Origin: an uncultured Clostridia bacterium
GTDB lineage: Bacteria; Bacillota; Clostridia; Christensenellales; Borkfalkiaceae
DNA: 54,327 bases
Assembly: GCA_934247855.1 (NCBI GenBank)
Contig: CAKQKA010000001.1
Location: forward strand, 1 to 54,327
Reading direction: 5' to 3'
The notes under the pieces were generated by a model. That model ran no database searches and was not told the DNA's origin. It saw nothing but the letters and a program-made list of their open reading frames with translations. Below are positions 8,477 to 51,723 of this stretch, in pieces. Position 1 is the first letter of the stretch. Each line of letters begins with the position of its first letter. Both the position numbers and the translations under genes were made by a program.

Positions 8477-8494
8477 CCTATAAGTCGGTTATCG
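8477..8494 (+). repeat. dispersed intergenic motif, copy 1
   Basis: CCTATAAGTCGGTTATCG, 19 nt after the ricT stop. Flanked by CCGCC...GGCGG. Confidence 0.8.
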
Positions 8495-8560
8495 CACTAT
8501 TGGCGGTTAAATGACGTCGTTTTTTTGACTTGAATATCGAAGTGAATTATGAATTACGAG

Positions 8561-8588
8561 AGGATAACCTTTAAAGGTTATCCTTTTT
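8561..8588 (+). terminator. intrinsic terminator
   Basis: AGGATAACCTTTAAAGGTTATCCT palindromic hairpin followed by TTTT. Confidence 0.7.
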
Positions 8589-8608
8589 ACTCTGTCTTTT
8601 AATATGAA

Positions 8609-8637
8609 TTGACTGCGTCCGCTGCTTATGTTATAAT
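8609..8637 (+). promoter_or_regulatory. sigma-A-type promoter of sbcDC
   Basis: TTGACT, 17-nt spacer, TATAAT. Confidence 0.55.
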
Positions 8638-8728
8638 AAAAAAGATAGAATTCGCGGTTTACTCTCGCTTTGAACGCGTGAAATATTGCGGGCGACCGCT
8701 TGAATCGAAAAGCCGCCGAGGTAGCATT

Positions 8729-9862
8729 ATGAAAATCATTCATTTATCCGATCTGCATTTAGGAATGCGTTTCTATGAGTTTTCGCTGATCGACGATCAA
8801 AAATACATTCTTGATCAGATTTTGGAAATAATCCGTGCGCAAAAACCCGACGCCGTCTGCATTGCGGGCGACGTGTACGACAAGAGCATTCCGCCTGTGG
8901 AAGCGGTCGAACTGTTCGACGATTTTTTATATAGTCTTGCAATGTTAAAGACGGAAACGTTCATAATAAGCGGGAATCACGACAGCGCCGAACGACTTTC
9001 GTTCGGCAATCGTATTTTCGACGTGAGCGGTTTGCATTTTTCGCCCGCTTACGACGGTGCGATAAAACCCATAACCTTGCGCGACGAATACGGCGAAGTC
9101 GATTTTTATATGTTACCGTTTATTAAGCCGTCCAACGTAAGAAGGTTTTTCCCGGATGAAAAAATAGAAAGCTATACAGACGCGGTAAAGGTTGCCGTAA
9201 ATCATATGCAAATCGATAACGCGCGGCGCAACGTGCTTATCGCACATCAGTTCGTTACGGGTTCTAAACGTTCGGAATCGGAGGATATATCGGTCGGCGG
9301 ACTTGATAACGTGGACGCAAGCGCGTTCGGATCGTTCGATTACGTCGCTTTGGGGCACATTCATAGTCCGCAAACGGCAGGCGGCGAAAAGATTTATTAT
9401 TGCGGAACGCCGCTGAAATATTCTTTTTCGGAGGTAAACGACCGAAAATCGGTTGCTGTTATAGAACTGAAAGAAAAAGGTTCTTTTGAACTTACGAAAA
9501 TTCCGCTTGCGCCGTTGCATGAGTTACGCGACTTATGCGGTACGTTCAACGAACTTATGAACAGGAGTTTTTATATCGATACGACTTACCAAAGCGACTA
9601 TGTGCGCATTACTCTTACCGATGAGGACGATATTCTGAACGCCGAGGGTAATTTGCGCGTTGTTTATCACGGACTTGCCACGCTCAGATACGATAACACG
9701 AGAACGAGGAATAATCAGTCGGTCGCTTCGATCGGCAACGTTGAGAACAAATCGCCGTTCGAGTTGTTTTCCGAGCTTTACAGAATTCAGAACGGAAAAG
9801 ACTTGAGCGAAGAGCAAATCGAGTATTTGAACAATAAGATTGCAAAGGTCTGGGAGGAGTAA
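8729..9862 (+). CDS. sbcD: exonuclease SbcD (Mre11-like nuclease)
   Basis: MKIIHLSDLHLG, GDVYD and GNHD phosphoesterase motifs. GAGG RBS before the ATG at 8729; the track ORF from 8609 is an upstream extension. Confidence 0.9.
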   Translation: MKIIHLSDLHLGMRFYEFSLIDDQKYILDQILEIIRAQKPDAVCIAGDVYDKSIPPVEAVELFDDFLYSLAMLKTETFIISGNHDSAERLSFGNRIFDVSGLHFSPAYDGAIKPITLRDEYGEVDFYMLPFIKPSNVRRFFPDEKIESYTDAVKVAVNHMQIDNARRNVLIAHQFVTGSKRSESEDISVGGLDNVDASAFGSFDYVALGHIHSPQTAGGEKIYYCGTPLKYSFSEVNDRKSVAVIELKEKGSFELTKIPLAPLHELRDLCGTFNELMNRSFYIDTTYQSDYVRITLTDEDDILNAEGNLRVVYHGLATLRYDNTRTRNNQSVASIGNVENKSPFELFSELYRIQNGKDLSEEQIEYLNNKIAKVWEE

Positions 9863-9863
9863 T

Positions 9864-13333: not shown

Positions 13334-13350
13334 AATATATCGAATGTGTT

Positions 13351-13367
13351 GATAATCTACCTATAGG
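13351..13367 (-). repeat. dispersed intergenic motif, copy 2
   Basis: + strand reads GATAATCTACCTATAGG, 18 nt after the stop at 13333, followed by CATACTTTT. Confidence 0.8.
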
Positions 13368-13421
13368 CATACTTTTATGTGTTCTTGGTTGTGTTTTTAG
13401 ATTATTTGTACTTAAATAGTA

Positions 13422-13438
13422 GATAATCGACTTATAGA
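13422..13438 (-). repeat. dispersed intergenic motif, copy 3
   Basis: + strand reads GATAATCGACTTATAGA followed by CGGACTTTTT; 71 nt from copy 2, same orientation. Confidence 0.85.
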
Positions 13439-13646: not shown

Positions 13647-16600
13647 ATGAAAGATTTCGTTCATTTACATTTACATACCGAATACAGCTTGCTGGACGGA
13701 GCAGCCAAGACGGACAAAGTTTTTGAACTTGCCAAAGAACTCGGACAAAATACGGTAGCCATTACCGACCACGGCAACATGTACGGAGTGGTCTATTTTG
13801 CCGAGCACGCGGCAAAGCTCGGAATGAAAGCTATTATCGGTTGCGAAATGTATATGTGCGACGATATGTATAAAAAAGGCGCGGACAACCGCGAGTACGA
13901 GCATCTTATACTGCTTTGTAAAAACGACACGGGTTATAAAAACCTTATTAAAATGGTTTCGATGGCTTTTATCGACGGCTTCTATCGCAAACCGCGCTGC
14001 GACTATAAAACGCTTGCCGAAAAGCACGAAGGGCTTATTTGTTTGTCGGCATGCCTTGCGGGGCGTATTCCGCAATATTTGCTTAACGGCAGGTACGACG
14101 ACGCGAAAGAGCATGCGCTTTGGATGAAGAGTATTTTCGGCGACGATTACTATCTGGAAATTCAGGATCACGGTATTCCCGAGCAGCGGCAAATCAATCC
14201 GTTGTTGTTCAGACTGTCCAAGGAAACGGGCATAAAACTCGTGGCGACCAACGACGTGCATTATCTTCGCAAAGAGGACGCGCTGATGCAGGAAATTATG
14301 ATGTGCATCAATACGCAGACTACACTCGACGATCCCAAGCACATGAAGTTCGAGACCGAAGAGTTTTATCTTAAAAGTCGCGAAGAGATGGAAAAAATGT
14401 TCGGCGATACCCCCGAGGTGCTTGACGTTACCGTGGAAATTGCCGAAAAGTGCTCGGGTGACTGCATAAAGCTCAACAAGAAATGCGAGCCTGTAAGAGA
14501 TGCGTCGCTTGTCCCCGGGTACATACCGCCCAACGGAATGACCGCTTACGAGTATTTGAAAATGCTCGGCGAGAACGGTCTGAAACAAAAATATAAAGAA
14601 ATTACTCCCGAAATACGCGAAAGATTCGATTACGAGCTTGATACCATAAGCAGCATGGGCTACCTCGAATATTATCTTATCGTGTGGGATTATATAAACT
14701 ACGCACGCGAGCACGGTATACCCGTCGGCGCGGGGCGTGGCAGCGGCGTTAGTTCTATCGTCGCTTATTCGATAGGCATTACCAACGTTGAACCATTGCA
14801 GTATAACCTCATTTTCGAGCGTTTTCTTAACAAAGAAAGGGTTAGTATGCCGGACTTTGACGTAGACTTCGATCCCGAACGCCGCGAAGAGGTTATAGAA
14901 TACGTCCGCGATAAATATGGCAGAGATAAAGTTGCGCAGATCGTAACGTTCGGTACGATGGCGTCGCGCGCGGCGATTAAGGACGTTGCCCGCGTTATGA
15001 GGGTTTCTTATGCCGAGGTCGATAAGATAACCAAACTTATGGACGGCAAGCATACCATTCCCGAACTGCTCGGTTTGAAAATGAGTAAAAAGGACGGCGA
15101 CGTTACCGTTCGTGAACTTAAAGAACTTTACGAAACGGACGATACCACGCACAGAGTCGTCGATATGGCGATGAAGCTCGAGGGCATGCCGAGGAATATT
15201 TCGGAACATGCCGCGGGCGTTATCATCTGCAATAAGGTGCTGTCCGATAACGTTCCGCTTGCCCGAAACGGCGACGATATAATAACGCAGTTCAACATGA
15301 AAGTCGATGAGCAGATGGGCATGCTGAAAATGGACTTTTTGGCACTCAAAACGCTTACCGATATCAAAAAATGCTGCGATTATATTCTTGAGGACACGGG
15401 CGTAACGATAGACTTCGGAGAAATAGGTTACGAGGATAAGGCGGCTTACGATCTTTTGTCGAGCGGGGATACCGACGCGGTGTTCCAGCTTGAATCTCCC
15501 GGTATGAAAAAATTCATGCGCGAACTTAAGCCGGAGAATCTCGAAGACGTAATAGCCGGTATATCGCTTTTCCGTCCCGGTCCTATGGACTCCATTCCTA
15601 AATATATTCAGTTTAAAAACAATCCCGAAACCATGACTTTCAAGCACGAACTTTTGCGCCCGATTCTTACGGTAACGCACGGCGTTATCATTTATCAGGA
15701 ACAGGTTATGGAAATAGTTCGTAAACTTGCGGGCTTTACGTTCGGTCAGGCGGATATTATCAGACGTGCCATGGGTAAAAAGAACATGGAAGAAATGGCG
15801 CGTATGAAAAGTATATTCATAAACGGCGAAAAGGATGAAAACGGCAACGTTAAGACCGAAGGCGCGATAGCGCGCGGAGTTCCCGCCGAGGTTGCCGACG
15901 ATATTTTCGAGGAAATGACCAGTTTCGCACAGTACGCGTTCAACAAGTCGCACGCCGCGGCGTACGCCGTTATAGCGTATCAGACCGCATACTTAAAACA
16001 CTATTATCCGCAGGAATTTCTTGCGGCAATCCTTAACGACCGTATTGACAAGATCGATGAAATTACCAAATACGTAATCTACCTTAAGGAGCGCGGAATA
16101 CCCGTTTTGCAACCCGATATCAACCACTCGAAAGCGTATTTTTCGGTTGAGGGCAAGGGTGTCCGGTTCGGCTTAGTAGGCGTAAAGGGCGTGGGTTTAG
16201 GCGCAATAGAAACCATTGTGGAAGAGCGCGTAAATGGCGGCGAGTTCAAATCGTTCGAGGACTTTATGTCTCGCGCGAACGTAAAAGTGCTTAATAAACG
16301 ACTTATAGAGAACCTTATTTATGCGGGTGCGTTCGATTGTTTTAACATCGCAAGAAGCAGACTTATCGCCGTGTACGACGGACTTATGGACAGGGCGGTC
16401 GCAATCGCCAAGGAACGCGACAGCAATCAACTCAGTCTTTTCAGCGGCGCGCTTTCGACATATAACGAGCTGACGGTTAAATATCCCGAACTTGCCGAGT
16501 ATGACGACAAGACAAGGTTATCGAAAGAGCGCGAGGTGCTCGGCGTTTACGTTACGGGACATCCGCTCACCAAATATATGGATAGCTTTGCGGGCTGTTC

Positions 16601-17205: not shown

Positions 17206-17224
17206 CCTATATGTTGATTATCGG
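17206..17224 (+). repeat. dispersed intergenic motif, copy 4
   Basis: CCTATATGTTGATTATCGG starts 2 nt after the dnaE stop; two mismatches to consensus; followed by CAGTTTTG. Confidence 0.7.
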
Positions 17225-17273: not shown

Positions 17274-17291
17274 GCTATAAGTCGATTATCG
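17274..17291 (+). repeat. dispersed intergenic motif, copy 5
   Basis: GCTATAAGTCGATTATCG followed by CGGGTTTTG; 68 nt from copy 4, same orientation. Confidence 0.85.
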
Positions 17292-20236: not shown

Positions 20237-20948
20237 TATAGAAAAACTGCGCGAAATGATCGTAAAATCAAGCAATATAGTCTTCTTCGGCGGGGCGGGC
20301 GTATCGACCGAAAGCGGTATTCCCGATTTCCGCTCGGTGGACGGGCTTTACTCGCAAAAGTACAAATACCCGCCGGAGGTGATCTTGTCGCACGATTTTT
20401 TCATGCAGCGCACGGAAGACTTTTATAAATTCTATTTCGACAAAATGATTTTTCCCGACGTGAAACCCAACGCAGCACACTTTAAGCTTGCCGAGATGGA
20501 GCAAAAGGGTTATTTAAAGTGCGTCATAACGCAAAATATAGACGGTTTGCACTACATGGCGGGCAGCAAAAACGTTTGCGAATTTCACGGCACGGTACAT
20601 AAAAATCATTGCTTAAAATGCGGAAAAGAGTATAATCTTAGTGAAATGCTGCAAAAATCGGGCGGTGTGCCGAGGTGTGGTTGCGGCGGAATTATTAAAC
20701 CCGACGTAGTGCTTTACGGCGAATCTATCCCGCAGGAAGCGTTTGAAAAATCTATCGAAGCGGTGGAAAATTGCGACTTGCTTATAATCGGCGGCACGAG
20801 TTTGAAAGTGCAGCCCGCGGCAAGTCTCGTAACGCTGACCAACGCAAGAAAAGTGGTCATAAACAAAGATCGACAGGAAATCGAAACTTTTGCCGAACTA
20901 TCGATTAACGAACCTATAGGCGAGGTTTTCAGCAAAATTATACTATGA
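20229..20948 (+). CDS. cobB: NAD-dependent protein deacylase (Sir2 family)
   Basis: GAGVSTESGIPDFRS, QNIDGLH, Zn module CLKCG...CGCGG. GTG start with a GAGGAGG RBS. Confidence 0.9.
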   Translation: MDNIEKLREMIVKSSNIVFFGGAGVSTESGIPDFRSVDGLYSQKYKYPPEVILSHDFFMQRTEDFYKFYFDKMIFPDVKPNAAHFKLAEMEQKGYLKCVITQNIDGLHYMAGSKNVCEFHGTVHKNHCLKCGKEYNLSEMLQKSGGVPRCGCGGIIKPDVVLYGESIPQEAFEKSIEAVENCDLLIIGGTSLKVQPAASLVTLTNARKVVINKDRQEIETFAELSINEPIGEVFSKIIL

Positions 20949-21570: not shown

Positions 21571-21588
21571 GCTATAAGTCGATTATTG
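21571..21588 (+). repeat. dispersed intergenic motif, copy 6
   Basis: GCTATAAGTCGATTATTG, 15 nt after the queH stop. Confidence 0.85.
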
Positions 21589-21603: not shown

Positions 21604-22875
21604 ATGTTACTGATAGATAAAGTAGATAAAAAATCGTACGGGGCAAAAGAGCTCGGGCTTGAAAAGGGCGATTCGATCATAAGTTTTAACGGTTATCCTA
21701 CCGAAGATATACTAGATTATGTGTATTACGACGGGCAGGAAAATTTTACCATGGGCGTTCTTACCAAGGACGGCGAAACCGTAACCGTAGACGTTGATAA
21801 ATACGAGGACGAATCGTTAGGTCTTACTTTTGCCGACGACGGATTGAAGATTAAAACGTGCTATAACGACTGCATTTTTTGTTTCGTAAAACAGATGCCG
21901 TGCGGTATGCGCCCCACGCTGTACGTTAAGGACGACGATTACCGCCAAAGTTTGCTTTACGGTAATTTCGTAACGATGACGAACGTAACGGATGCCGATC
22001 TCGACCGAATTATTCGTTTGCAGTTCTCTCCGCTTTACGTTTCCGTTCAGGCAATGAACGGCGAGGTAAGAAAGAAGATGCTCAACAACCGTTTTGCAGA
22101 TAAGATATGGTATCAATTAAAACGGTTAGAGGAGGGCGGCATTACGGTCAACGCACAGGTCGTTCTGGTAAAAGGCGTGAACGACGGAAAGGAACTCGAT
22201 TATACGATAGATAAGTTATACGAACTTAAAAACGTTGTTTCGGCGGCAGTCGTGCCTTGCGGAATTACCAAATTCCGCGAAGGTTTGTACCCCATAGAGG
22301 ATATCGACCGCGACTATGCACGCTCGGTTATAGAGCAGGTTGAAAGTGCCAATAGCAGGCACGGAGGCTCACTTATTCAACTTGCGGACGAGTTTTTCTT
22401 CAAGGCGGAATTATCTTTGCCGCCCGAAGAATATTACGGCGATTTTCCGCAAATCGAAAACGGCATAGGCATGAGCCTTAAGTTTAAACAAAATGTCGGG
22501 TACCTTGTAGAAACGGCAAAGAAGCCTTTGCTTGCCCCCGGTAAATATCTGACGATCAGCGGCACGAGCATATATAAATTTATGTGCGGAATCGTAAAAA
22601 CGGTGGAAGACTCTTGCCCGAACGTTACGATTAAACTGCTGCCCATAGAAAACGACTTTTTCGGGCATACGGTAAATTGTACCGGGTTGCTTACGGGCGG
22701 AGATATTTTGCGTGCCGTGCAAAAACTCGACGAAAAATTCGACGTTTTGCTTATACCGGATAGTTGCCTTATGCGCGGCGAAGATATCTTTCTTGACGAC
22801 GTTGCTTTAACCGAATTAAGCGAAAAACTCGGTATGAAAGTCGTCCGCGCGGTTATGCCCGACGCCGAAGAATAG
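21604..22875 (+). CDS. PDZ plus radical-SAM-like DUF512 protein
   Basis: N-terminal PDZ-like segment, CYNDCIFC (Cx3Cx2C) cluster; 423 aa. Sits upstream of der, which I recall as a common arrangement in clostridia. Confidence 0.7.
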   Translation: MLLIDKVDKKSYGAKELGLEKGDSIISFNGYPTEDILDYVYYDGQENFTMGVLTKDGETVTVDVDKYEDESLGLTFADDGLKIKTCYNDCIFCFVKQMPCGMRPTLYVKDDDYRQSLLYGNFVTMTNVTDADLDRIIRLQFSPLYVSVQAMNGEVRKKMLNNRFADKIWYQLKRLEEGGITVNAQVVLVKGVNDGKELDYTIDKLYELKNVVSAAVVPCGITKFREGLYPIEDIDRDYARSVIEQVESANSRHGGSLIQLADEFFFKAELSLPPEEYYGDFPQIENGIGMSLKFKQNVGYLVETAKKPLLAPGKYLTISGTSIYKFMCGIVKTVEDSCPNVTIKLLPIENDFFGHTVNCTGLLTGGDILRAVQKLDEKFDVLLIPDSCLMRGEDIFLDDVALTELSEKLGMKVVRAVMPDAEE

Positions 22876-23073
22876 GCTTATTGCAGGAGAGGGGTTTTGT
22901 TGCGAAGAGTTTTCGGCGACGAATTGTCGGGCAAAAAACGAATATTGCCCGATAAAAAGCATAAACAACGGCAGTTAAAGGCATAAAAAACGCCAAGAGG
23001 CGAATTATGCTTGCCAAAATACGATAAAAAGAATAAAATACCAAAAGAAATACGATAATTAAGGAAAGAAATA

Positions 23074-24387
23074 ATGAAACCGATAGTAGCCATAGTCGGC
23101 AGACCTAACGTAGGCAAGTCCACGTTGTTCAATAAAATCACGGGCAAAAAAATTGCCATAGTAGAAGACAAACCCGGTGTAACGCGCGATAGAATTTATG
23201 CCGACGCGGAGTGGTGCGGGCATAATTTTACGCTTATAGATACCGGCGGAATAGAGCTTAAAAGCGAGGACGAAATGTGGCGGCACATTAAAAAGCAGGC
23301 GGAAATCGCCATAGAAACCGCTGACGTAATCCTGCTGCTTTGCGACGTGAAAAGCGAGATTACCGCTTCCGATTACGACGTTGCCGATATGCTCCGCCGC
23401 AGCCGTAAGCCCGTTGTACTTGCGGTAAACAAACTTGATAACTACAAGCCCGAACGCCTTTTCGAATACTACAATTTAGGACTTGGCGAGCCGTTCGGTA
23501 TTTCATGCGAGCAGGCTTTAGGGCTTGGCGATATGCTTGACGAGGTTTGTTCGTATCTCGATAAAGTCGAAGAGGAGGAAACCGAGGGCGAGTCGATCAA
23601 GATTGCCGTCGTCGGTAAGCCTAACGCGGGCAAGAGCAGTCTTGTAAACAAGTTGCTCGGTTACGACAGGACGATTGTTTCCGACATTTCTGGTACTACG
23701 CGTGATGCGATCGATACTCCGTTTACGGTAAACGGGCAGAACTACATTCTTATCGATACCGCGGGTATAAGAAAGAAAAAAGCGGTTGACGAGGACGTTG
23801 AATATTACAGCGTAATACGTGCGCTTGGTGCGGTTCGCCGTGCGGACGTTTGCCTTGTCGTGGTGGACAGCAAAGAGGGACTTTCCGAGCAGGATGTAAA
23901 GATTTGCGGTTATGTACACGAGCAAGGCAAGCCGTCGGTCATCGTTATGAACAAGTGGGATCTTATCGAAAAGGACACGAACACGATCAACGAGTTTAAT
24001 AGAAAACTTGACTGCGACCTTGCATTTATGGATTATTACAAGTCGGTCTACGTTTCGGCGCTCTCCGGTCAGCGAGTTAAAAACATACTGGCAGTCGCAA
24101 TGGAATCGTACGAAAACGCGCACCGCCGTATCACTACGGGTACGCTTAACGATCTTATCGGCGACGCGGTTCGCACCATCGATCCGCCGTCAAAAAAAGG
24201 TAAACGTCTTAAAATTTATTATTCCACGCAGGACGACGTTTGTCCGCCGCGCTTTGTGGTGTTCGTAAACGACAGCGAACTCGTTCATTTCTCTTATAAA
24301 CGCTATCTCGAAAACGTTTTAAGAAAGGCGTTCGATTTCAGCGGAACGCCTATCAGAATTTTGTTCCGCAACCGCGACGAGGATTGA
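23074..24387 (+). CDS. der: ribosome-associated GTPase Der/EngA
   Basis: Two G domains (GRPNVGKST, GKPNAGKSS) plus a KH-like C-terminus; 437 aa. Confidence 0.95.
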   Translation: MKPIVAIVGRPNVGKSTLFNKITGKKIAIVEDKPGVTRDRIYADAEWCGHNFTLIDTGGIELKSEDEMWRHIKKQAEIAIETADVILLLCDVKSEITASDYDVADMLRRSRKPVVLAVNKLDNYKPERLFEYYNLGLGEPFGISCEQALGLGDMLDEVCSYLDKVEEEETEGESIKIAVVGKPNAGKSSLVNKLLGYDRTIVSDISGTTRDAIDTPFTVNGQNYILIDTAGIRKKKAVDEDVEYYSVIRALGAVRRADVCLVVVDSKEGLSEQDVKICGYVHEQGKPSVIVMNKWDLIEKDTNTINEFNRKLDCDLAFMDYYKSVYVSALSGQRVKNILAVAMESYENAHRRITTGTLNDLIGDAVRTIDPPSKKGKRLKIYYSTQDDVCPPRFVVFVNDSELVHFSYKRYLENVLRKAFDFSGTPIRILFRNRDED

Positions 24388-24403
24388 TATAAAACAAAAT
24401 AGG

Positions 24404-35987: not shown

Positions 35988-36161
35988 ACCTTGCGTGGAT
36001 GAACGGCGAACGGGTGGCGGAGCAAAACGCAGATATTCGGTTGCTGCGAGTGCTGTGCATTAACGGCTGCAACGGCGCGCGTAACTAAATAACCGTGCGT
36101 AAAGTTAAGCGATGTGTCATAAGCAAAACAAGCGGGAGGCGAAGTTATACGGGGGAAATAA

Positions 36162-36635
36162 ATGAATAGTGAAACGGTGGAAAAAATACGCGAAGCCCTT
36201 ATAAGGCGCGCGGTCGGTTACGACACCGAAGAAACCGTCGAAGAGTATTCGGGTACGGGCGAGGACGTGACTATGGTCAGGCGTAAAGTTACCAAAAAGA
36301 ACGTTCCGCCCGATATATCGGCGGCAAAACTGTTACTTGAAGAAGCGGGCGTCGATTATTCGGCGATGACCGACGAACAGCTCGAAGAAGAAAAGCAACG
36401 CTTGCTCGAACTACTTAAAAAAGCCGATTGCCCGAAACATGTTAAAACAGCAAAAGCCGAAAACAAGCAAAACGACGGCGTGTCCGAAGATAATGCCGCC
36501 GAAAAGCGCGCAGCAAAAAAGCAAGCGGCAGACGGCGGGCAAACGCCAGACGGCGATAAAAAATCAGACGGCGGACAAAGCGTTTCGGCAAAGCGAAAAG
36601 CCGAAAAAAGGAAGGCAAAAAGTGAAGATAGTTAA
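36162..36635 (+). CDS. terminase small subunit-like protein with a K/A/D-rich tail
   Basis: RRAVGYDTEETVEEY...VRRKVTKKNVPPDISAAKLLLE resembles the XtmA-type TerS core (...K.vpPDvtA..fwLkNR). The tail contains three 18-nt CAGACGGCG-based coding repeats. Confidence 0.45.
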   Translation: MNSETVEKIREALIRRAVGYDTEETVEEYSGTGEDVTMVRRKVTKKNVPPDISAAKLLLEEAGVDYSAMTDEQLEEEKQRLLELLKKADCPKHVKTAKAENKQNDGVSEDNAAEKRAAKKQAADGGQTPDGDKKSDGGQSVSAKRKAEKRKAKSEDS

Positions 36636-36819
36636 AAACGAGTATGAAACGATTTGCGACGTCAAGGGTTGCACGCGAATGGCAGAATACAGGTTGATTA
36701 TGGACGTTGCGAGCGACGGACAGGTTTGTATGTGTATGGAGTGCTTAAAGGAGTTCAATCGCGAGGCGTCGAAGAAAATCAGAGCGGAGGAAAGGAAAAA
36801 TGCAAAAAAAGACGGCTGA
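36622..36819 (+). CDS. small Zn-ribbon-like protein
   Basis: GTG start with an AAAGGAAGG RBS; 65 aa with Cys pairs CDVKGC and CMCMEC. Overlaps both neighbours, suggesting translational coupling. Confidence 0.45.
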   Translation: MKIVKNEYETICDVKGCTRMAEYRLIMDVASDGQVCMCMECLKEFNREASKKIRAEERKNAKKDG

Positions 36820-38680
36820 AGAACAGCTTAATCAAAGGCTGGCTAAAGAGATTACCGAAGATTTTGAAAGGCGGCGCGAGGAGCGCAGAACGCTCGAGCA
36901 GCAATGGAAGCTGAACATCAATTATCTTATGGGCAATCAATACGCCGAAATTGCGCCGAGCGGCGAGATTGACGAAGAAGTTAAGGATTATTTCTGGCAA
37001 GGCAGGAACGTCTATAACCATATCGCGCCGATCGTTGAAACGAGGATTGCTAAACTTGCAAGGGTTCGCCCTGTTATGTCCGTACGGGCGTCGGGCGAAG
37101 AAGAACGCGATCTGAAAGCTGCAAAAATGGCAAGCGCGCTGCTTTCTACCACTTTTTCGCGGTTGGAGATGAGCGACGTGATTTACAAGGCGACTTTATG
37201 GAGCGAAACGCTGGGCACTTCTTTTTACAAGGTGACCTGGGACTACAACGGCGGTAAGAAGGTGGGCGAAAACGATAAAGGCGCGGTGTACGAGGGCGAC
37301 GTAAGAGTTGAGGCTCTTTCGCCGTTCGATATCTACCCCGACAGCCTTTTCCGAGAGGATATCGACGATCAGAAGAGTATAATTCACGCCCGTGCCATGA
37401 ACGTTGACGACGTTGCGGCGATTTACGGCAAAAGGCTTATCGGCAGCGACGTGGACGTATTTTCGCTTGAAAAAAACACTTGCGGAGGGCAGACGTTCTT
37501 TTCCAAACGCATAACGGGCGGCACTCTGCGCGACAGCGTTGTGGTAATCGAACGGTACGAAAAGCCGAGCGAAGAGCACCCCAACGGCAGAGTTGTAACA
37601 GTTGCTTCGGGCGAGGTGCTTGCGGTTGGCGAACTGCCGTATATCAACGGCGAAGAGGGCAGGCGCGTTTATCCGTTCGTGCGGCAAATTTCAATCAATC
37701 AGGCGGGTTGCTTTTTCGGCGTAAGCGTAATAGACAGGCTTATTCCGTTGCAGCGAGCATATAATGCGGTAAAAAACAGAAAACACGAGTACTTAAACCG
37801 CGTAAGTATGGGCGTTGTTACCGTAGAGGACGGATCTATCGATACCGATGCGCTCGTGGAGGACGGCTTGTCGCCGGGTAAAGTGCTTGTTTACAGGCAG
37901 GGTTCAACGCCGCCGCGGTTTATGGCTTCGGCAACCGTGCCGCCGGACTTTACCTATGAAGAAACAAGGCTTGAGCAAGAGTTCATCAACGTCAGCGGAG
38001 TAAGCGAGTTTTCAAGAAATTCCGACGTGATGTCGCAGAATATAAGCGGCGTTGCGCTGGAGCTTATGGTCGAGCAGGACGAAACAAGGCTTACCACGTC
38101 CGCCGAAAACGTGCGCCGCGCCGTGCGGATAATCGGCAAACAAATAATAAGATTGTTCCGCCAGTACGCCAAACCGTCAAGAATGATGCGGGTGGCCGGG
38201 CGCGGCAATTCGGTCGAACTGTATTATTTTAATTCGGACGACTTAACCAGCGACGACGTTGTGTTCGATACCGAAAACGAACTGTCGTCAAGCCCCGCGC
38301 AAAAGAAAAGCGCGGTGTACGATATGTTAAAGGCGGGACTTTTGTCCGACGACGACGGCAAGATGAACCAGCGCACTAAGGCGAAAATACTTGAACTATT
38401 GGGGTTCGGCACGTTGTCGGGCGCGCAGGATATAACCAATCTGCACATAGACAAGGCTCAGCGCGAAAACATAGGCTTTTCAAACATGGATTTCGAGCCG
38501 GAGGAATTCGACGACCACGCGATTCACGTTACGGAACACACGCGGTTTTTGCTGTCCGAGGATTTTGACGGCAAGGAAGAGATAAAAAACAAAATAATAT
38601 TGCATCTTCGCAAGCACAAACAGCTGATCGGCGTCGAGCTTGCGGAGAATATTTTGGAGGATAACAATGAAGAAAAATAA
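36800..38680 (+). CDS. phage portal protein
   Basis: 626 aa, positioned between terminase-like and scaffold/coat genes. N-terminus EQQWKLNINYLMGNQY is portal-like. Confidence 0.75.
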   Translation: MQKKTAEEQLNQRLAKEITEDFERRREERRTLEQQWKLNINYLMGNQYAEIAPSGEIDEEVKDYFWQGRNVYNHIAPIVETRIAKLARVRPVMSVRASGEEERDLKAAKMASALLSTTFSRLEMSDVIYKATLWSETLGTSFYKVTWDYNGGKKVGENDKGAVYEGDVRVEALSPFDIYPDSLFREDIDDQKSIIHARAMNVDDVAAIYGKRLIGSDVDVFSLEKNTCGGQTFFSKRITGGTLRDSVVVIERYEKPSEEHPNGRVVTVASGEVLAVGELPYINGEEGRRVYPFVRQISINQAGCFFGVSVIDRLIPLQRAYNAVKNRKHEYLNRVSMGVVTVEDGSIDTDALVEDGLSPGKVLVYRQGSTPPRFMASATVPPDFTYEETRLEQEFINVSGVSEFSRNSDVMSQNISGVALELMVEQDETRLTTSAENVRRAVRIIGKQIIRLFRQYAKPSRMMRVAGRGNSVELYYFNSDDLTSDDVVFDTENELSSSPAQKKSAVYDMLKAGLLSDDDGKMNQRTKAKILELLGFGTLSGAQDITNLHIDKAQRENIGFSNMDFEPEEFDDHAIHVTEHTRFLLSEDFDGKEEIKNKIILHLRKHKQLIGVELAENILEDNNEEK

Positions 38681-39365
38681 CGACGCTCTCGAAAACGCGG
38701 GCGGAAAAGAGATATTATGCGAAACGGAACAAGGTGCGGACAAGCCGGCAAGCGACGCGCCCTCCGTCGGCAAGTTCGCCGACGCGGAATCTCTTTTGAA
38801 AGCGTATAATCAACTGGAGTCGGAATTTACCAAACGCAGTCAAAGACTTCGGGAGTTAGAAAGGGAATATGCCGATTTAAAACAGGAACAATCCGATAAT
38901 CGCGCCGAATCGGAAGCCGTACAGGATGAAACGGGGAGTGCGGCGGAGGAAAGGGCGAGTAAGGACTCCGTTATCGGCGAGGACGGCGGTATCGCAATCG
39001 AGGTGGAACGCTTTTTGAAAGACAATCCGGAGGCAGGATTATATGCCGACGAAATTGTTAAAAGAGCCGACCTCGAGGGCGAGCCTGAGAGCGGTTTTCT
39101 TGATCGCGCATACGTCGGCGTGCTTAAAGACATGCTGCGCCGCGAGAAAGAAAAAATAACCGACGAATTCATTCTGGAGCGCGCGCTGAACACCAAGTCC
39201 GTGCGCGACGAGATTATTCGCGGTTATCTTGCGGAGATTTATTCCGCAAAAAAAGAGTGTCTTTTGACGGGGAGCAGCGGCGAATCCGCGATAGCCCCGC
39301 CGATAAAGCCCTCTACTATATCCGAAGCGGGCAAAATGGCAGTTTCGGTTTTAAGAAAAAAATGA
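38667..39365 (+). CDS. phage scaffolding protein
   Basis: 232 aa, acidic coiled coil (LESEFTKRSQRLRELEREYADLKQEQ) with a basic C-terminus. GGAGG RBS. Sits directly upstream of the coat gene. Confidence 0.65.
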   Translation: MKKNNDALENAGGKEILCETEQGADKPASDAPSVGKFADAESLLKAYNQLESEFTKRSQRLRELEREYADLKQEQSDNRAESEAVQDETGSAAEERASKDSVIGEDGGIAIEVERFLKDNPEAGLYADEIVKRADLEGEPESGFLDRAYVGVLKDMLRREKEKITDEFILERALNTKSVRDEIIRGYLAEIYSAKKECLLTGSSGESAIAPPIKPSTISEAGKMAVSVLRKK

Positions 39366-39383
39366 TAAGGAGAAAACAAAACT

Positions 39384-40559
39384 ATGGTAACAATGAACAG
39401 TGCGGACAATGCGCTTAAGTCACTCTATCTCGGCGTTGTATCCGAGCAACTCAATACGAGCGTAAACCCCTTGCTTGCAAAAATCAAGCAGACCACGCAG
39501 GACGTGTGGGGTAAGGAAATTCGTCGCCTTGCGCAGTACGGTATCAACGGCGGTATCGGCGCGGGTACGGAGGACGGAACTCTTCCTGCCGCGGCGGGTA
39601 ATAATTACGACCAGTTCGTGCTTACGCTTAAAAACCTTTACGGCACTATCGAAATTTCCGATAAAGCGGTGCGTGCGTCCGAAAACAACGTCGGCGCGTT
39701 CGTGAACCTGCTCAACGCCGAAATGGAAGGTTTGCTTAAAGCCTCTTCCTTCAACTTCGGCAGAATGCTTTTCGGCGACGGAAACGGTACGCTCGGCAAA
39801 GTATCCGAGGTTAAAGACGACGGTTCGGTCGTGCTCGACGGCGTTAAAAACGTAGTCGAAGGTATGGTAATAGATTTCCTTTCGTCCGCGGGCGCTGCAA
39901 TCGACGGAGCAAGCGGCAGAAGAATTACTTCGGTAGACAGGGCGAGTAAGACTATAACCGTCAGCGGAACCAAACTTACTTCCACTACCGTTCCCGCAAA
40001 CAGCATTATCACCGTTCAGAATTCTTACGGCAAGGAAATCACAGGTCTTAAAGCGATTTTCTCGTCCACGGGCAAGCTTTACGGACTTGACCGAGCCACA
40101 CATAAATGGCTTATTCCGCACATGAAAACCAACGTGGGTACTATTTCCGAAACGGTTATTCAGGAGGCTATCGACACGCTCGAAGAAAACACGGGCAGTC
40201 AGGTAAACTTCATCGTCTGTTCGTCGGGCGTTAAGCGTGCGTATCAGAAAGCGCTTGCGGCTTACAAACGCAATATAGACGTTATGGAACTGCAGGGCGG
40301 TTACAAGGCTTTATCATACAACGGTATTCCCGTCGTGTCCGACAGATTCTGCCCGGACGGCACTATGTACCTGCTCAATACCGACGACTTCGCGCTGCAT
40401 CAGCTTTGCGACTGGAAATGGCTCGAAGGCGAGGACGGCAGGGTAATCAAGCAGGTTGCCAACAAGCCCGTATATTCCGCTACGCTCGTTAAATACGCCG
40501 ATCTGGTATGTACAAGACCGTGCGGTCAGGCTATGCTCAGCGGTATAACCGAAGCATAA
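39384..40559 (+). CDS. phage major capsid (coat) protein
   Basis: 391 aa, position after scaffold, with long conserved-looking beta-rich sequence. Family (HK97-fold, possibly P22-coat-like) not verified. Confidence 0.7.
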   Translation: MVTMNSADNALKSLYLGVVSEQLNTSVNPLLAKIKQTTQDVWGKEIRRLAQYGINGGIGAGTEDGTLPAAAGNNYDQFVLTLKNLYGTIEISDKAVRASENNVGAFVNLLNAEMEGLLKASSFNFGRMLFGDGNGTLGKVSEVKDDGSVVLDGVKNVVEGMVIDFLSSAGAAIDGASGRRITSVDRASKTITVSGTKLTSTTVPANSIITVQNSYGKEITGLKAIFSSTGKLYGLDRATHKWLIPHMKTNVGTISETVIQEAIDTLEENTGSQVNFIVCSSGVKRAYQKALAAYKRNIDVMELQGGYKALSYNGIPVVSDRFCPDGTMYLLNTDDFALHQLCDWKWLEGEDGRVIKQVANKPVYSATLVKYADLVCTRPCGQAMLSGITEA

Positions 40560-40585
40560 TTCATTCTATTATTGTCCGGCATGCA

Positions 40586-40864
40586 ATGCCAGCCAAGAGT
40601 AATACGAACCCCGCCAAAACGCTGATATTTACACCCTTTTTGTCAAACTCTCGCTTGAAGTACGTCTAGTACGTCGGCGTTCGACTTTGCCAAAAATCAT
40701 CGAAAATAGCAGCGTTTTGGTTGCAGACAAGTCTTGCGCCCATGTTTTTAGGTAAGACAAGGCGCGTGAGCGCGTTAATACTACACGTATAACACGCGAA
40801 TGCAACGCTGTATTAGCAAAAACACGGTCGCAAGACCGAGGTTCGCTTTATTCTTGTCTGGCAT
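40586..40864 (+). ncRNA. ~280-nt helix-bounded intercistronic element after the coat gene
   Basis: ATGCCAGCCAAGAGTAA (40586-40602) pairs with TTATTCTTGTCTGGCAT (40848-40864): 15 WC, 1 GU, 1 mismatch. Inner 12-bp helix 40613-24/40710-21. GNRA hairpin CGGTCGCAAGACCG (40826-40839). No promoter seen. Confidence 0.5.
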
Positions 40865-40908
40865 CTGGGCGGGTAATCCGCCCCGAAATAATTATTCGGA
40901 GGAAAATC

Positions 40909-41472
40909 ATGACAGTAAAAAATGTGCTTTGCGAGGCGGCGAAATTGCTCGGTGAAAGCGACGTCGTAAATTATCTGTCCGATAAAATACCCGACGATGT
41001 CGCCTATTGCGAAGAAACCGAAACGGCGTTGAAACATTGTTACGACGTGGTTATCGACGAAATCGCTTGCGAATATATGCCGCTTATTTATAGCGAAAAG
41101 TTGAGCGCAAAAAGCGGAACAATCGATTATTCCGACTTTTCAAAAACGCCCGTGCGCATTAAAAAAGTGTGTGACGAAAATGATAATAAGTTGCCCTATA
41201 GGTCGTTTATCGACCATTTGGAAGTAAATAGCGACTATGCGTCGGTGACCTATGAATACAAACCCGAAACGCAAAACGGCAACGACGAGGCGTATTATTC
41301 AAACGGCATAATCGGCGTGTACGTTTTGTCTTACGGTATTGCCGCGGAGTTTTGCACCGAGCGCGGAAGAATTGCCGACGCCGAGGTGTGGATCGGTAAG
41401 TTTGCAAGTGCGATGCGTGCGCGCGTCGCCGAAAAAGGTCGGCTGAAAATAAAAAACAGGAATTGGTGCTGA
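40909..41472 (+). CDS. hypothetical phage protein (possible head-completion/adaptor by position)
   Basis: 187 aa, GGAGG RBS, first gene after the coat gene. Confidence 0.6.
   Translation: MTVKNVLCEAAKLLGESDVVNYLSDKIPDDVAYCEETETALKHCYDVVIDEIACEYMPLIYSEKLSAKSGTIDYSDFSKTPVRIKKVCDENDNKLPYRSFIDHLEVNSDYASVTYEYKPETQNGNDEAYYSNGIIGVYVLSYGIAAEFCTERGRIADAEVWIGKFASAMRARVAEKGRLKIKNRNWC
41195..41212 (+). repeat. dispersed motif, copy 14, inside a CDS
   Basis: CCTATAGGTCGTTTATCG read in frame as PYRSFID within ORF 40909-41472. Confidence 0.8.
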
Positions 41473-44061: not shown

Positions 44062-44079
44062 TCTATAGGTCGATTATCG
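44062..44079 (+). repeat. dispersed intergenic motif, copy 15
   Basis: TCTATAGGTCGATTATCG, 44 nt after the stop at 44018. Confidence 0.9.
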
Positions 44080-45075: not shown

Positions 45076-45093
45076 CCTATAGGTCGATTATCG
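45076..45093 (+). repeat. dispersed intergenic motif, copy 16
   Basis: CCTATAGGTCGATTATCG (exact consensus), followed by CGCTGTTTTG. Confidence 0.9.
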
Positions 45094-45440: not shown

Positions 45441-46348
45441 AAATGCTCACTTTTACATACCGTGTGAGCGGAAGAAACCGCCCGCTGCTCATAAATCGAA
45501 TGAATAAAGCAGGAATTGCCTTGCTTAAAATTCTAATTATCGGCGAAAAAGAGGCTGAAATAACCATATACGCCAAAGACCGCGTAAAATATTTTGCAAT
45601 TTGTGAAAACTTATGTTATAATAAATTAATAGGAGTAAGCGGATTGCTTGCGCCTGTTTACCGCATTCTGAAAGCTCCGCAGGTTATTGTCGGGGCGGTC
45701 GTGTTCGTTATCGCGCTTATATTCGGCAGTAATTTGTATTTTGGTAACGAACTTGTCGGCGATTCGGAAATTTACCGCGCGCAGATAGACGAGGCTTTCA
45801 AAAAAGCCGATATCGGCTTGTGCGGCTTGTTTACCGAAAGCGACCTTAAAGCGGTTGAAAATTATATCGGAGACAAGACGAATGCTAACTTTATAAAAGT
45901 AGAAAAGTCGGGCAATAGGGCGATTATCACCACTTACGCCGCTATATCTCCGCCTCAAAAGATACAATCGTCCACAAAAGATATTATCGCCGACGGCGAC
46001 TGCGTGATTATAAAAATCACCGTCTATTCGGGCACTCCGCTTGTAAAAGAGGGCGATAAACTTACTAGAGGTCAACCGATAATCGGTGCGTACGATATTT
46101 TAAAAGATGAAAGCAAAGTGCCGTGCACAATAACGGGCTATGTGCTTGTGGAAAAAGCGTTTACGTTTGACTATCGTAGCGAGTTTACGGCAGATGACGC
46201 GGTTAAAAACAATGCGATTGCCGCCGCGCGGTTTATGCTCGGCGATAAAACCGTAACGCATTACGACGTTAAAGTTCGGAATAACGACGTGCGCGTTACA
46301 ATGTATTATGAATGTTTACTGTTCGGAAACGAACTGTTCGGAGGATGA
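45437..46348 (+). CDS. yqfD: sporulation protein YqfD-like
   Basis: 303 aa, one central TM. N-terminal YRVSGRNRPLLINRMNKAGIAL is typical of YqfD. Synteny supports the call. Confidence 0.7.
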   Translation: MKMLTFTYRVSGRNRPLLINRMNKAGIALLKILIIGEKEAEITIYAKDRVKYFAICENLCYNKLIGVSGLLAPVYRILKAPQVIVGAVVFVIALIFGSNLYFGNELVGDSEIYRAQIDEAFKKADIGLCGLFTESDLKAVENYIGDKTNANFIKVEKSGNRAIITTYAAISPPQKIQSSTKDIIADGDCVIIKITVYSGTPLVKEGDKLTRGQPIIGAYDILKDESKVPCTITGYVLVEKAFTFDYRSEFTADDAVKNNAIAAARFMLGDKTVTHYDVKVRNNDVRVTMYYECLLFGNELFGG

Positions 46349-49178: not shown

Positions 49179-49658
49179 ATGTCGAAATTACTTGTAAACT
49201 GCGATAATCAACTTATAGACGGGGATTTGCTCGGTAAAGCCGTGTATGAAACGCTTAAACAGCGCGTAAATTTATCGGCTGAAATTTGTTTTTGCGATAA
49301 AGATGAAATTCAAAAGCTGAACAAAGAAAACCGTGGAATTGACAGCGTTACGGACGTTTTATCTTTTCCTGCGGCGGGCGTAACCGCGGGTGAGATTGTT
49401 AAAAAGAAAAACTATCCGTTCGACGTCGATCCCGAAAACGGCTCTGTTTTTCTCGGTTCAATAATGATTTGTACCGACCGCGCAAAAGAACAGGCGGAAG
49501 AATTCGGGCATTCTTTCGGACGCGAGCTTTATTATCTTGCCGTTCACGGCATGTTGCATTTATTCGGGTATGATCATATGAATGATGAAGACAAAACCGA
49601 AATGCGTGCGTTAGAGGAAGAAATTCTTAAGAAACTCGACAAGACGAGAGAAGATTAA
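49179..49658 (+). CDS. ybeY: rRNA maturation endoribonuclease YbeY
   Basis: HGMLHLFGYDH Zn motif; 159 aa. Confidence 0.9.
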   Translation: MSKLLVNCDNQLIDGDLLGKAVYETLKQRVNLSAEICFCDKDEIQKLNKENRGIDSVTDVLSFPAAGVTAGEIVKKKNYPFDVDPENGSVFLGSIMICTDRAKEQAEEFGHSFGRELYYLAVHGMLHLFGYDHMNDEDKTEMRALEEEILKKLDKTRED

Positions 49659-49739
49659 ACTAAGACGAAATGTCCGATAACGGGCATATAGACAGACTTT
49701 TAACGATAAAATCTAAATTAACCAACGGGAGAACGACAA

Positions 49740-50645
49740 ATGAAAAGCGGAACGGTGGCGGTGGTCGGGCGCGCGAACGCGGGCAAATCTACTTTGATAA
49801 ACGTAATAGTAGGTGAAAAGGTGAGTATTGTATCGCCCAAGCCGCAGACCACGCGCGATCGTATTCTTGCGGTATATAACGCCGAGGATTGTCAGATTGT
49901 TTTTCAGGATACTCCGGGCATGTATAAAGCGTCGTCGCTTTTAAACGAGCGTATGCAAAAAACCGCCGTCCGTACCGCGGACGACGTTGATCTTGTGCTT
50001 ATGCTTGTGGACGCGCACAGCGGTCTTAAAACCGAAGATAAAGAACTTATAGACCGATTTGTAAAGCGCGGCGAGTACAAAATGATCATCGCGTTGACGA
50101 AAACGGATATTACTGCCGACGGTGTTATTCCGCAGGTTGTAACCGAGATAGGCGAACTGCCGAAGGATAAAGTAATTTGCATTACGGCAATTTCCTCGCG
50201 TACGGGTAAAAACGTTAAAAAACTCATCGGACTTTTAAAAGATAACCTGCCCGAGGGTGAGCCGATAATTTCCGAAGACATTATTTCCGATAAAAGCGAA
50301 AAATTCATGATTGCCGAAATCATGCGCGAAAAAGTACTGTTAAAATATGACAAAGAAATTCCGCATGGCGTTGCCGTTGTGGTGAACACTTTCGAGCGCA
50401 GAGAAAGCGGCAGTTATTATATCAGTCTGGATATCGTTTGCGAAAAACCTAATCATAAAGCGATAATAATAGGCAAACAGGGAAAAGCTCTTAAAGAAAC
50501 CGCGGCTTTTGCAAGGGCGGGGATGGAAAAGTTCCTGGGTGCAAAAGTATTTTTAGAGGTATACGTTAAAGTAAAAACCGATTGGCGCAACCGCCCCGAT
50601 CGGTTGCACGAATACGGATACGACGGTGACGACGGTATTAAGTAA
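49740..50645 (+). CDS. era: GTPase Era
   Basis: GRANAGKSTL, DTPG and a C-terminal KH domain; 301 aa. Confidence 0.95.
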   Translation: MKSGTVAVVGRANAGKSTLINVIVGEKVSIVSPKPQTTRDRILAVYNAEDCQIVFQDTPGMYKASSLLNERMQKTAVRTADDVDLVLMLVDAHSGLKTEDKELIDRFVKRGEYKMIIALTKTDITADGVIPQVVTEIGELPKDKVICITAISSRTGKNVKKLIGLLKDNLPEGEPIISEDIISDKSEKFMIAEIMREKVLLKYDKEIPHGVAVVVNTFERRESGSYYISLDIVCEKPNHKAIIIGKQGKALKETAAFARAGMEKFLGAKVFLEVYVKVKTDWRNRPDRLHEYGYDGDDGIK

Positions 50646-50704
50646 ACGACAATAAAATTAAAAAAGTCGTCGGCATTTTTAAGTATGAATAATACTCAAA
50701 AATG

Positions 50705-50723
50705 CCGATAATCGACCTATAGG
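50705..50723 (-). repeat. dispersed intergenic motif, copy 17
   Basis: + strand reads CCGATAATCGACCTATAGG followed by GCGTTTTTTTT and preceded by AAAAATG; 60 nt after the era stop. Confidence 0.9.
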
Positions 50724-50803
50724 GCGTTTTTTTTGCTGTTTTGCGTTTTAAAAACGACTTTTGTCGTCTGAATAAAATATGCATAGATGCGCAATATAGA
50801 AGT

Positions 50804-50923
50804 ATGGATAAAACTTCTAAAACTCCCGAAAGGATCGCTTGGGATTTGTTTGAAAAAACAGGCAATCCCTCTTACTATATGCTATACAAGAAATTAAAAG
50901 GATTGCAGGAGCCGAAACTTTAA
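50804..50923 (+). CDS. yqzL: YqzL family small protein
   Basis: 39 aa. RIAWDLFEKTGNPSYYMLYKKLKG matches the W..F..TGN...YLL.K pattern. Lies between era and recO as in B. subtilis. Weak RBS. Confidence 0.55.
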   Translation: MDKTSKTPERIAWDLFEKTGNPSYYMLYKKLKGLQEPKL

Positions 50924-50963
50924 TTAAAAATTCGGCGCGACTTTTTACCTGCTCGGCACTAAG

Positions 50964-51680
50964 ATGATAAAGGTCAACGCGTTGGCATTAAAAAGCGTGG
51001 ATTACCGCGATAACGACAAGATGATATCTCTTTATTCGCTTGAAAAAGGACTTATCGGCGCGTGCGTTCGCGGTGCGAAAAAGGCGGGATCGAGACTCGG
51101 TTTTTGCACTCAGCCGTTTTGTTTTGCAGAGTATGTTTTAAACGAAAAAGGCGACCGCCTGACGGTAACGGGTGCGACAGAGATTGAAAGTTTTTATAAC
51201 ATTCGGCTGGATTTACACTCGTATTATGCGGGGTGCTGTATTCTTGAATTTTTACTTAAATTCACCGATGCCGACGCTCCCGACGAAAAGACCTTTTTGC
51301 TTGCGGCGGACAGTCTGAAAAAACTCAATTTTGCGGACGGATTGCCCGAACGAGTGCTTGTGGATTTCTTGTATAAACAAACGGAAATTTCGGGTTATGC
51401 TTTGGGTAAAGCCGAATGTTTTAGTTGCGGCAAAGAAGCCAAAGATTTTAAAAAGGCGTATTTCGATCCCGAAAGCGCGACCATCGTTTGCGAAGATTGT
51501 TTTACGGTTGGCATGCGTGAGATACTTGTAGATACCGCAAAAGGTCTTGCAAAAATCGCCGAGGGCGAAGAGGTCGAACCTGCCGCTCTTAAATATCTTT
51601 TAAAGTTTTTGAATTATTATTTCAGAATAAAAGCGGGAGAATATATCTATTCGATAGATCAGTTGATCGAACTGCCTTAA
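50964..51680 (+). CDS. recO: DNA repair protein RecO
   Basis: 238 aa; OB-fold N-terminus and Zn module CFSCG...CEDC. Confidence 0.85.
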   Translation: MIKVNALALKSVDYRDNDKMISLYSLEKGLIGACVRGAKKAGSRLGFCTQPFCFAEYVLNEKGDRLTVTGATEIESFYNIRLDLHSYYAGCCILEFLLKFTDADAPDEKTFLLAADSLKKLNFADGLPERVLVDFLYKQTEISGYALGKAECFSCGKEAKDFKKAYFDPESATIVCEDCFTVGMREILVDTAKGLAKIAEGEEVEPAALKYLLKFLNYYFRIKAGEYIYSIDQLIELP

Positions 51681-51705
51681 CGGATTTGAGTTTACCGCAA
51701 AAGCG

Positions 51706-51723
51706 CGATAATCGACTTATAGG
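51706..51723 (-). repeat. dispersed intergenic motif, copy 18
   Basis: + strand reads CGATAATCGACTTATAGG followed by CGGGTTTTT; 26 nt after the recO stop. Confidence 0.9.

Follow-up and report, generated by a model that had tools for sequence, protein, structure and literature searches.

A clade-specific 18-bp repeat set in phased A/T tracts past gene ends of gut Clostridia, a candidate protein site in bent DNA

Introduction

Several described systems of interspersed DNA sites invite comparison with an 18-bp motif, CCTATAGGTCGATTATCG, that recurs throughout the DNA analyzed here: positions 1 to 54,327 of contig CAKQKA010000001.1 (the window), from an uncultured Clostridia bacterium of the Borkfalkiaceae (assembly GCA_934247855.1). 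In Escherichia coli, repetitive extragenic palindromic (REP) sequences grouped in BIME-2 (bacterial interspersed mosaic elements) and the strong gyrase sites (SGS) have been proposed to handle transcription-driven supercoiling. Sequences that mark DNA for uptake are the DNA uptake sequence (DUS) of Neisseria, which has 12 bp, and the uptake signal sequence (USS) of Haemophilus, with a core of 9 bp. Cyanobacterial HIP1 (GCGATCGC) is abundant, conserved and tolerated within genes, and has no known role. The IHF-binding RIP and RIB repeats are extragenic repeats containing bent-DNA sites, with WATCAANNNNTTR plus an A-tract. In the gyrase motif of E. coli, a 36-bp centre is flanked by 47-bp arms whose periodicity is 10.75 bp; BIME-2 and the regions downstream of transcription units are enriched in this motif (PMC6379681; PMC13284261).

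The motif described below is a clade-specific chromosomal signature with dialects, and not an artefact. We assign a probability of roughly 0.4 to its being a site at which a protein recognizes duplex DNA that is wrapped or bent, that is, a topological site of the gyrase or nucleoid-protein type at gene ends.

Results and Discussion

A conserved unit of about 36 bp

At a threshold of three mismatches, the window contains 19 matches to CCTATAGGTCGATTATCG, against 0.03 expected from 100 dinucleotide shuffles. A position weight matrix (PWM) trained with copies from other species adds about nine degenerate copies, mostly genic, where shuffled sequence yields 0 to 1. With these, the window carries about 28 copies, a density of one per ~2 kb. 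By PWM score, intergenic copies are closer to the consensus than genic ones. Alignment extends the conserved unit beyond the 18 nt recognized earlier to about 36 bp, of the form AAAAgtCnG-cCTATArGTCGATTATCG-nnntTTTnG. The 18-bp core is asymmetric and joins CCTATAGG to CGATTATCG, two palindromes whose centres lie one helical turn apart. The A-run and T-run frame proposed in the first-pass annotation is real, with A at -8 to -5 and T at +23 to +26 nearly invariant among aligned copies. The pseudo-dyad of the ~36-bp centre (positions -8 to +27) falls near position 9-9.5.

The motif corresponds to no described repeat family, in agreement with its earlier description as a real, conserved repeat without a name. 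A literature search for the sequence returned no match, and nothing relevant was found in the literature on Christensenellaceae repeats. At the Rfam 15 gathering threshold the sole match in the window is a 6S RNA at 27399-27599, and the motif matches no family; a tRNA gene search found none. Of the possible resemblances to Fur, DnaA, Spo0A and IHF boxes, only an IHF-like spacing stands out. TATCGR-N4-TT at motif positions 14-25 is a putative counterpart, in letters and spacing, of the IHF consensus (WATCAANNNNTTR), with an A-tract on the other side. Relative to the RIP and RIB repeats, the motif departs from that consensus at two positions and its A-tract lies one helical turn further off.

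Phased A/T tracts around the core

With about 200 copies anchored on the core, A/T-rich peaks recur every ~11.3 bp on both sides. They lie near -50, -38, -27, -16 and -6.5, continue through TATA (4.5) and ATTAT (14) within the core, and reappear near 24.5, 35, 47 and 58.5. The phasing is symmetric about position ~9.5; it is strong as far as ±60 bp and can be detected out to ±120 bp. Its power in protein-coding flanks is 97, against a maximum of 37 for generic A-tract anchors used as controls. It is also present around genic copies, and after collapse of related sequences to 170 clusters. The control anchors and redundancy filtering rule out genome-wide A-tract periodicity as its source. The flanks alternate between A/T-rich and G/C-rich with no specific bases conserved, which points to selection on DNA shape and not to common descent. 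The selected shape appears to extend over hundreds of bases, and a period above 10.5 bp would match a right-handed wrap or underwound DNA. This long-range phasing is a new finding that adds to the features shared with uptake sequences and with gyrase sites of the REP/BIME type. Examples can be seen at 8350-8620 and 50580-50850 of the window and in loci L001-L125, where the phasing runs through the 3' ends of coding genes.

Placement relative to genes

Gene context was counted over the window plus the loci described below, using simple gene calls based on open reading frames (ORFs). A copy is present in 31 convergent gaps versus 2 divergent ones, although the background holds 68 and 66 such gaps, respectively, with the same summed length (binomial p ~7e-8, by hand). 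In an unbiased 139 kb there are 47 copies, which occupy 24 of 57 tandem, 3 of 8 convergent and 0 of 9 divergent gaps, and 30% of these copies are genic. Copies lie a median of 33 nt past the upstream stop, most often at 5-27 nt, so that the position shortly past stop codons noted earlier also holds in the larger sample; the median distance to the next start is 122 nt. Orientation is opposite to gene direction in 49 cases and the same in 43, a neutrality that rules out a strand-specific RNA signal. A promoter is likewise rejected: there is no orientation preference and no -35 element, divergent gaps are nearly devoid of copies, and the distance to the start is variable. The first-pass view of the motif as a mark of operon ends is correct insofar as copies lie mostly past genes, but 23-30% are genic, and those at 21571 and 24404 sit in 47-60-nt gaps between genes that are probably co-transcribed.

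Copies in the window

All but one of the 18 start positions reported in the first pass are reproduced within ±1 nt. The remaining one, 34018, is only a partial copy, TATAGGTCGATT, and two copies had been overlooked (28957 on the plus and 49202 on the minus strand). The pairs spaced by 68-71 nt are borne out, as is the inverted pair given as 33987/34018. The possible traces, at 1-20 and 34-47, score weakly and do not reach the scan threshold. The core copies are as follows.

8477-8494 (+): core copy with 2 mismatches, 42.5 bits, 19 nt past the stop of the PSP1 gene
13350-13367 (-): core copy 17 nt past a stop, upstream of dnaE; first of a same-orientation pair with 71 nt spacing
13421-13438 (-): core copy, 46.6 bits; second of the pair with 13350
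17206-17223 (+): core copy 2 nt past the dnaE stop; first of a pair with 68 nt spacing
17274-17291 (+): core copy; second of the pair with 17206
21571-21588 (+): core copy that takes up the 47-nt queH-DUF512 gap, leaving 15 nt to the stop and 15 nt to the ATG
24404-24421 (+): core copy in the der/plsY gap; conserved in L007 and L112
25406-25423 (-): core copy past plsY, with L007 and L112 sharing its position and orientation
28957-28974 (+): copy within the comEC (Competence domain) ORF
29333-29350 (+): core copy 27 nt past the comEC stop
33020-33037 (-): perfect copy, 47.7 bits, 16 nt past the terminase stop; inverted pair with 33088
33088-33105 (+): core copy; inverted partner of 33020
33986-34003 (-): core copy found at up to 3 mismatches
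34020-34031 (+): partial copy TATAGGTCGATT, forming an 11-bp inverted repeat with 33986, then a T-run
41195-41212 (+): core copy within an unsupported 187-aa ORF that has no Pfam match
44062-44079 (+): core copy that precedes the ATG at 44121 by 42 nt
45076-45093 (+): perfect copy directly downstream of a canonical hairpin terminator
49202-49219 (-): core copy at the start of ORF 49179-49658
50706-50723 (-): perfect copy past the era-like GTPase gene
51706-51723 (-): core copy 26 nt past a stop

The degenerate copies are listed separately.

5657-5674 (-): 19.6 bits, within the decarboxylase gene
6476-6493 (-): 29.6 bits, within the decarboxylase gene
7419-7436 (+): 25.3 bits, within the holB-like gene
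16292-16309 (-): ~20 bits, within dnaE; codon choice over the conserved peptide NKRLIE
20903-20920 (-): weak, 11 bits, at the end of the SIR2 gene
31966-31983 (-): 15.6 bits, within the terminase gene
45912-45929 (+): 31 bits, within a gene
49675-49692 (-): 24.4 bits, intergenic
50036-50053 (-): 19.5 bits, within the era-like gene

Distribution and dialects

An exact-pattern scan over 185,579 species-representative genomes yielded at least 117 loci. The matches listed belong overwhelmingly to dozens of independent metagenome-assembled genomes (MAGs) of gut Christensenellaceae or "Clostridia" (human, goat, roe deer, buffalo); those from unrelated taxa are single, mostly genic and devoid of the A/T-run frame. 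Presence in dozens of independent MAGs rules out an assembly or vector artefact. Enrichment beyond the window and a non-artefactual origin, both raised as checks in the first pass, are thus established by the abundance of the motif in many independent assemblies. Locus L007 is 95% identical to window positions 22117-27906 and retains both of its motif copies. Loci anchored on dnaE homologues were used to escape ascertainment by the motif itself, and they compare with the window as follows.

L118, L119, L125: DnaE 77-80% identical; 0.25-0.30 copies per kb; consensus motif in L119 and L125, GATTAACG dialect in L118
L121: DnaE 63% identical; 0.34 copies per kb; dialect CTATAAGCCGATTAyCG (GCCGATTATCG)
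L120, L122, L123, L124: DnaE 57-64% identical; no copies

The L118 dialect, with GATTAACG in place of GATTATCG, is represented by 7 copies and that of L121 by 8. In the four copy-free sister lineages, a 10-mer count revealed no substitute abundant motif. The dialects and the absence from these lineages fit co-evolution with a binding protein. The viral collection contains 12 single matches, none with the flanking signature, and this count is at or below the chance level estimated by hand. Phages related through the portal protein of the window carry no copies, a negative of little weight given that the hosts of these phages are not known.

Genic copies and orthologous sites

Genic copies occupy stop-free frames only, and are found in the Pfam-confirmed genes rqcH, mfd, uvrB, spoIIE and comEC. 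The RqcH copy falls in a variable linker, where it encodes AISRLS at the identical position 528 nt into the gene in two species (L064:766-783, L068:4469-4486), and alignment with Bacillus subtilis RqcH reveals zero change in length. The weak dnaE copy (20 bits) could be a chance match. Among the genes with sampled copies are the genome-maintenance genes uvrB, mfd, dnaE and comEC, in a sample too small for a test; a location in genome-maintenance genes has also been reported for Neisseria DUS.

Orthologous copies keep position and orientation across species despite diverging flanks, both on the two sides of plsY and downstream of the peptidase M1 gene. Of the window sequence from the plsY stop to the copy at 25406 (25342-25398), 41 nt have no counterpart in the 95%-identical L007. 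Sequence adjacent to the motif thus turns over and the motif persists.

A candidate topological site at gene ends

The orientation neutrality, unstructured copies, conservation of sequence and not of pairing, genic copies, dialects and long-range phasing together argue for duplex-DNA recognition by a bending or wrapping complex. A sequence-specific protein or complex would read the asymmetric 18-bp core as double-stranded DNA, and the 60-120 bp of phased A/T tracts on each side would pre-shape the DNA for bending or wrapping round that protein. Selection would retain copies in the free DNA right after genes, in tandem and convergent gaps, and weaker forms within genes. The most likely role would be topological or architectural, the motif being where DNA gyrase, or else a clade-specific nucleoid protein, preferentially loads. 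At the 3' ends of transcription units, the bound protein may then absorb the supercoiling that transcription generates, or insulate against it. From the sequence, we infer protein binding, the kind of binder and the topological role alike.

Among the closest parallels are REP/BIME-2 and the gyrase sites (Mu SGS and the Topo-Seq motif), which share with the motif a location at the 3' ends of genes or operons, hundreds of copies, both orientations, and a ~36-bp centre with periodic bendable arms. The 36-bp centre and periodic arms past transcription units would thus mirror the gyrase motif of E. coli; the traits matched are the ~36-bp centre, arms that are strong to ±60 bp, and enrichment downstream of transcription units. 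REPs differ in being hairpin palindromes mobilized by RAYTs (REP-associated tyrosine transposases) and strictly extragenic, whereas the motif is mostly unfolded and a quarter genic. The gyrase motif is degenerate, whereas the core described here is invariant.

Several observations weigh against a gyrase or nucleoid-protein site. The period is 11.3 bp, compared with 10.75 bp in the E. coli gyrase arms, and the phasing reaches past the 130-bp gyrase footprint. To our knowledge gyrase does not read an invariant 18-bp core, and we know of no hyper-abundant nucleoid-protein site of such a kind. A role at the ends of transcription units fails to predict either the genic fraction or the copies in short gaps of probable operons. 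Uptake sequences share most features of the motif. The gene-end bias could arise from mere promoter avoidance, and therefore this bias alone cannot separate an architectural site from an uptake signal. Because of the phasing, site size and symmetry, we rank the architectural site slightly above the uptake signal. Among the roles offered in the first pass, the evidence favours the nucleoid- or uptake-signal-like DNA site.

Comparison with DNA uptake sequences

A DNA uptake signal resembling DUS or USS is possible, if somewhat doubtful. A competence-pilus or receptor protein would prefer DNA that carries the motif, uptake bias and recombination would spread it to all sites that tolerate it, and kinking of the DNA during uptake would be aided by the phased A/T tracts. 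Almost every qualitative USS/DUS hallmark listed in PMC3458573 is present. The motif is abundant, at ~1 copy per 2-3 kb, shows no bias with transcription direction, and is clade-specific, with dialects and motif-free sister lineages. It is tolerated within genes, as seen from the stop-free frames, the unchanged length of RqcH and the codon choice at the weak dnaE copy, and it fits the consensus best between genes. A subset of copies are opposed pairs with terminator-type hairpins, as inverted USS/DUS pairs are co-opted as rho-independent terminators, and helically phased A/T tracts adjoin the core. Foreign DNA lacks the motif: it is absent from viral contigs and from the phage-like 34.0-41.2 kb of the window, a gap of only marginally unusual size. 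Finally, the window contains comEC.

Against an uptake signal, the near-invariant 18-bp core in a symmetric 36-bp frame holds far more information than a pilin-type receptor reads, uptake sequences having 9-12 bp. The two-sided phasing to ±120 bp, coding DNA included, is far longer than the two T-tracts of USS. The intergenic bias is much stronger: 65% of copies are genic in H. influenzae, but only 23-30% here. In Firmicutes, to which the host belongs, no uptake specificity is known.

The comEC gene of the window also counts against uptake, being present as two overlapping ORFs. These ORFs (27802-28587 and 28548-29306, together 27802-29306) suggest a frameshift or a sequencing error, and the motif copy at 28957 lies in the second; no beta-lactamase domain was detected in window comEC.

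Genomic signatures of other kinds

A signature of the HIP1 kind, maintained perhaps through repair, recombination or a process linked to methylation, is unlikely. In its favour, our tests do not single out the reader of the motif, and HIP1 is likewise hyper-abundant, clade-restricted, also genic and conserved at orthologous sites. HIP1 is, however, an 8-bp perfect palindrome without gene-end bias or phased flanks. The motif is far longer and asymmetric, and its strong gene-end bias and phased flanks point to a shape-dependent protein complex.

RNA structure and terminators

We consider an RNA-level element improbable. Such an element would be a weak bidirectional terminator assisted by a NusA/NusG-type factor, or an mRNA 3'-end protector, with a small hairpin beside a U-run on each strand (CGACC-UAUA-GGUCG / GUCGA-UUA-UCGRC). 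The A-run/T-run frame, which resembles that of bidirectional intrinsic terminators, does place a U-tract downstream in either direction. Copies lie 5-27 nt past stops, one was flagged as terminator-like (25413-25426), and folding of positions -5 to +45 reaches -12 kcal/mol or lower for 26% of intergenic copies, versus 4% of shuffles. A stable GC-rich hairpin is nevertheless absent from most copies. Folding energies of window copies range from -0.6 to -8.6 kcal/mol and are no better than those of shuffles, which bears out the earlier remark that the stem is weak, and no covariation was found between the two flanks. It is sequence and not structure that is conserved in the short form: a hairpin needs no invariant 16-nt sequence, and the two orientations give different, complementary RNAs. 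An intrinsic terminator or REP hairpin is therefore rejected for the common form.

The well-folding minority (~15-26%) consists mostly of dimers. About 4% of copies are inverted dimers that overlap on the CGATTATCG palindrome with an offset of 9-10 nt, and eleven such overlapping dimers have 13-18-bp stems with A and T runs. These dimeric long forms, to which a terminator reading is confined, are predicted to be bidirectional terminator hairpins of textbook form. Examples are L071:5186-5230, L075:5666-5710, L038:227-270 and L111:1669-1715; none occurs in the window.

Canonical terminators are present in 53% of gaps with the motif versus 42% of gaps without it, in no fixed order relative to it, and this co-occurrence rules out the motif as their replacement. 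The 6S RNA gene of the window (Rfam RF00013, 49.1 bits; 27399-27599, minus strand) is followed by a strong canonical GC-rich terminator at 27387-27365 (-), so the host uses ordinary intrinsic terminators. An RNA-level element also leaves unexplained the copies within essential genes and probable operons, and the long-range phasing. The terminator or mRNA-stabilizing role suggested in the first pass is thus unlikely for an orientation-neutral motif that accompanies canonical terminators.

Mobility

Least probable of all is a selfish interspersed repeat, of the REP/RAYT type or a very short miniature inverted-repeat transposable element (MITE), transposing into terminator regions and conserved by descent and not by function. 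High copy number, 3'-intergenic location and both orientations are indeed REP-like, some pairs lie 60-77 and 110-133 nt apart, a minority of copies are long imperfect palindromes with flanking A/T runs, and an indel adjoins the copy at 25406. The common short form, however, has no hairpin, terminal inverted repeats or flank covariation, its 36-bp unit is asymmetric, and the one genic copy compared with an outgroup, that of RqcH, adds no length. The location is not strictly extragenic, one consensus serves many species with orthologous copies conserved, and transposition leaves the phased coding flanks unexplained. The 10 copy-flanked ORFs scanned are all housekeeping genes, with no RAYT or Y1 transposase among them. 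The tiny-MITE or REP/RAYT role proposed earlier is accordingly unlikely.

Setting of the window

The window is ordinary chromosomal DNA, with cysS, an alaS-like gene, greA, holB, sbcCD, dnaE, queH, der, plsY and comEC, and nearly all genes lie on the plus strand. Phage-like genes occupy 31601-41200, where the GC content rises from 0.37 to 0.51. They include a terminase large subunit (31601-33004), a BspA-LRR/collagen-repeat protein (34638-35792) and a P22-type portal (36800-38680). The motif-free 34.0-41.2 kb falls within this stretch, yet copies flank the terminase gene.

The alanyl-tRNA synthetase-like ORF at 1759-3558 encodes 599 aa with catalytic and SAD domains and is missing the usual C-terminal part; the 132-nt gap after it contains no motif. 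Long antisense shadow ORFs of 386-760 aa lie opposite cysS, alaS and dnaE, at 119-1279 (-), 1900-3582 (-) and 13671-15953 (-). They are probably a codon-bias effect and not genes.

Implications

We place the motif among the interspersed genomic signature repeats, a known class, though there is a real chance that it is something more unusual. One such possibility, which we hold tentatively, is that a dedicated DNA-wrapping protein, or gyrase with a specificity factor, acts at ~40% of gene ends. An 18-bp code embedded in at least 150-200 bp of phased bendable DNA would then form a regular array of topological insulators, which has not been described in bacteria. Should the motif instead prove to be an uptake signal, a case we regard as possible but doubtful, it would be the first DNA-uptake signal sequence outside the Proteobacteria.

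In practice, the motif could serve as a taxonomic marker, as its dialects track sub-clades, and could flag foreign DNA in MAGs, given that viral contigs and the phage-like stretch of the window are without copies. The extension of the ~11.3-bp phasing into coding sequence would mean that DNA shape, when under selection, can take precedence over codon choice across hundreds of bases. If a protein reads the motif, programmed sites of bent DNA occur every 2-3 kb along the chromosome of a gut lineage that is abundant, associated with health and hard to culture. These sites would offer a handle on the management of transcription-driven supercoiling, or on the recognition of self-DNA during Firmicute transformation.

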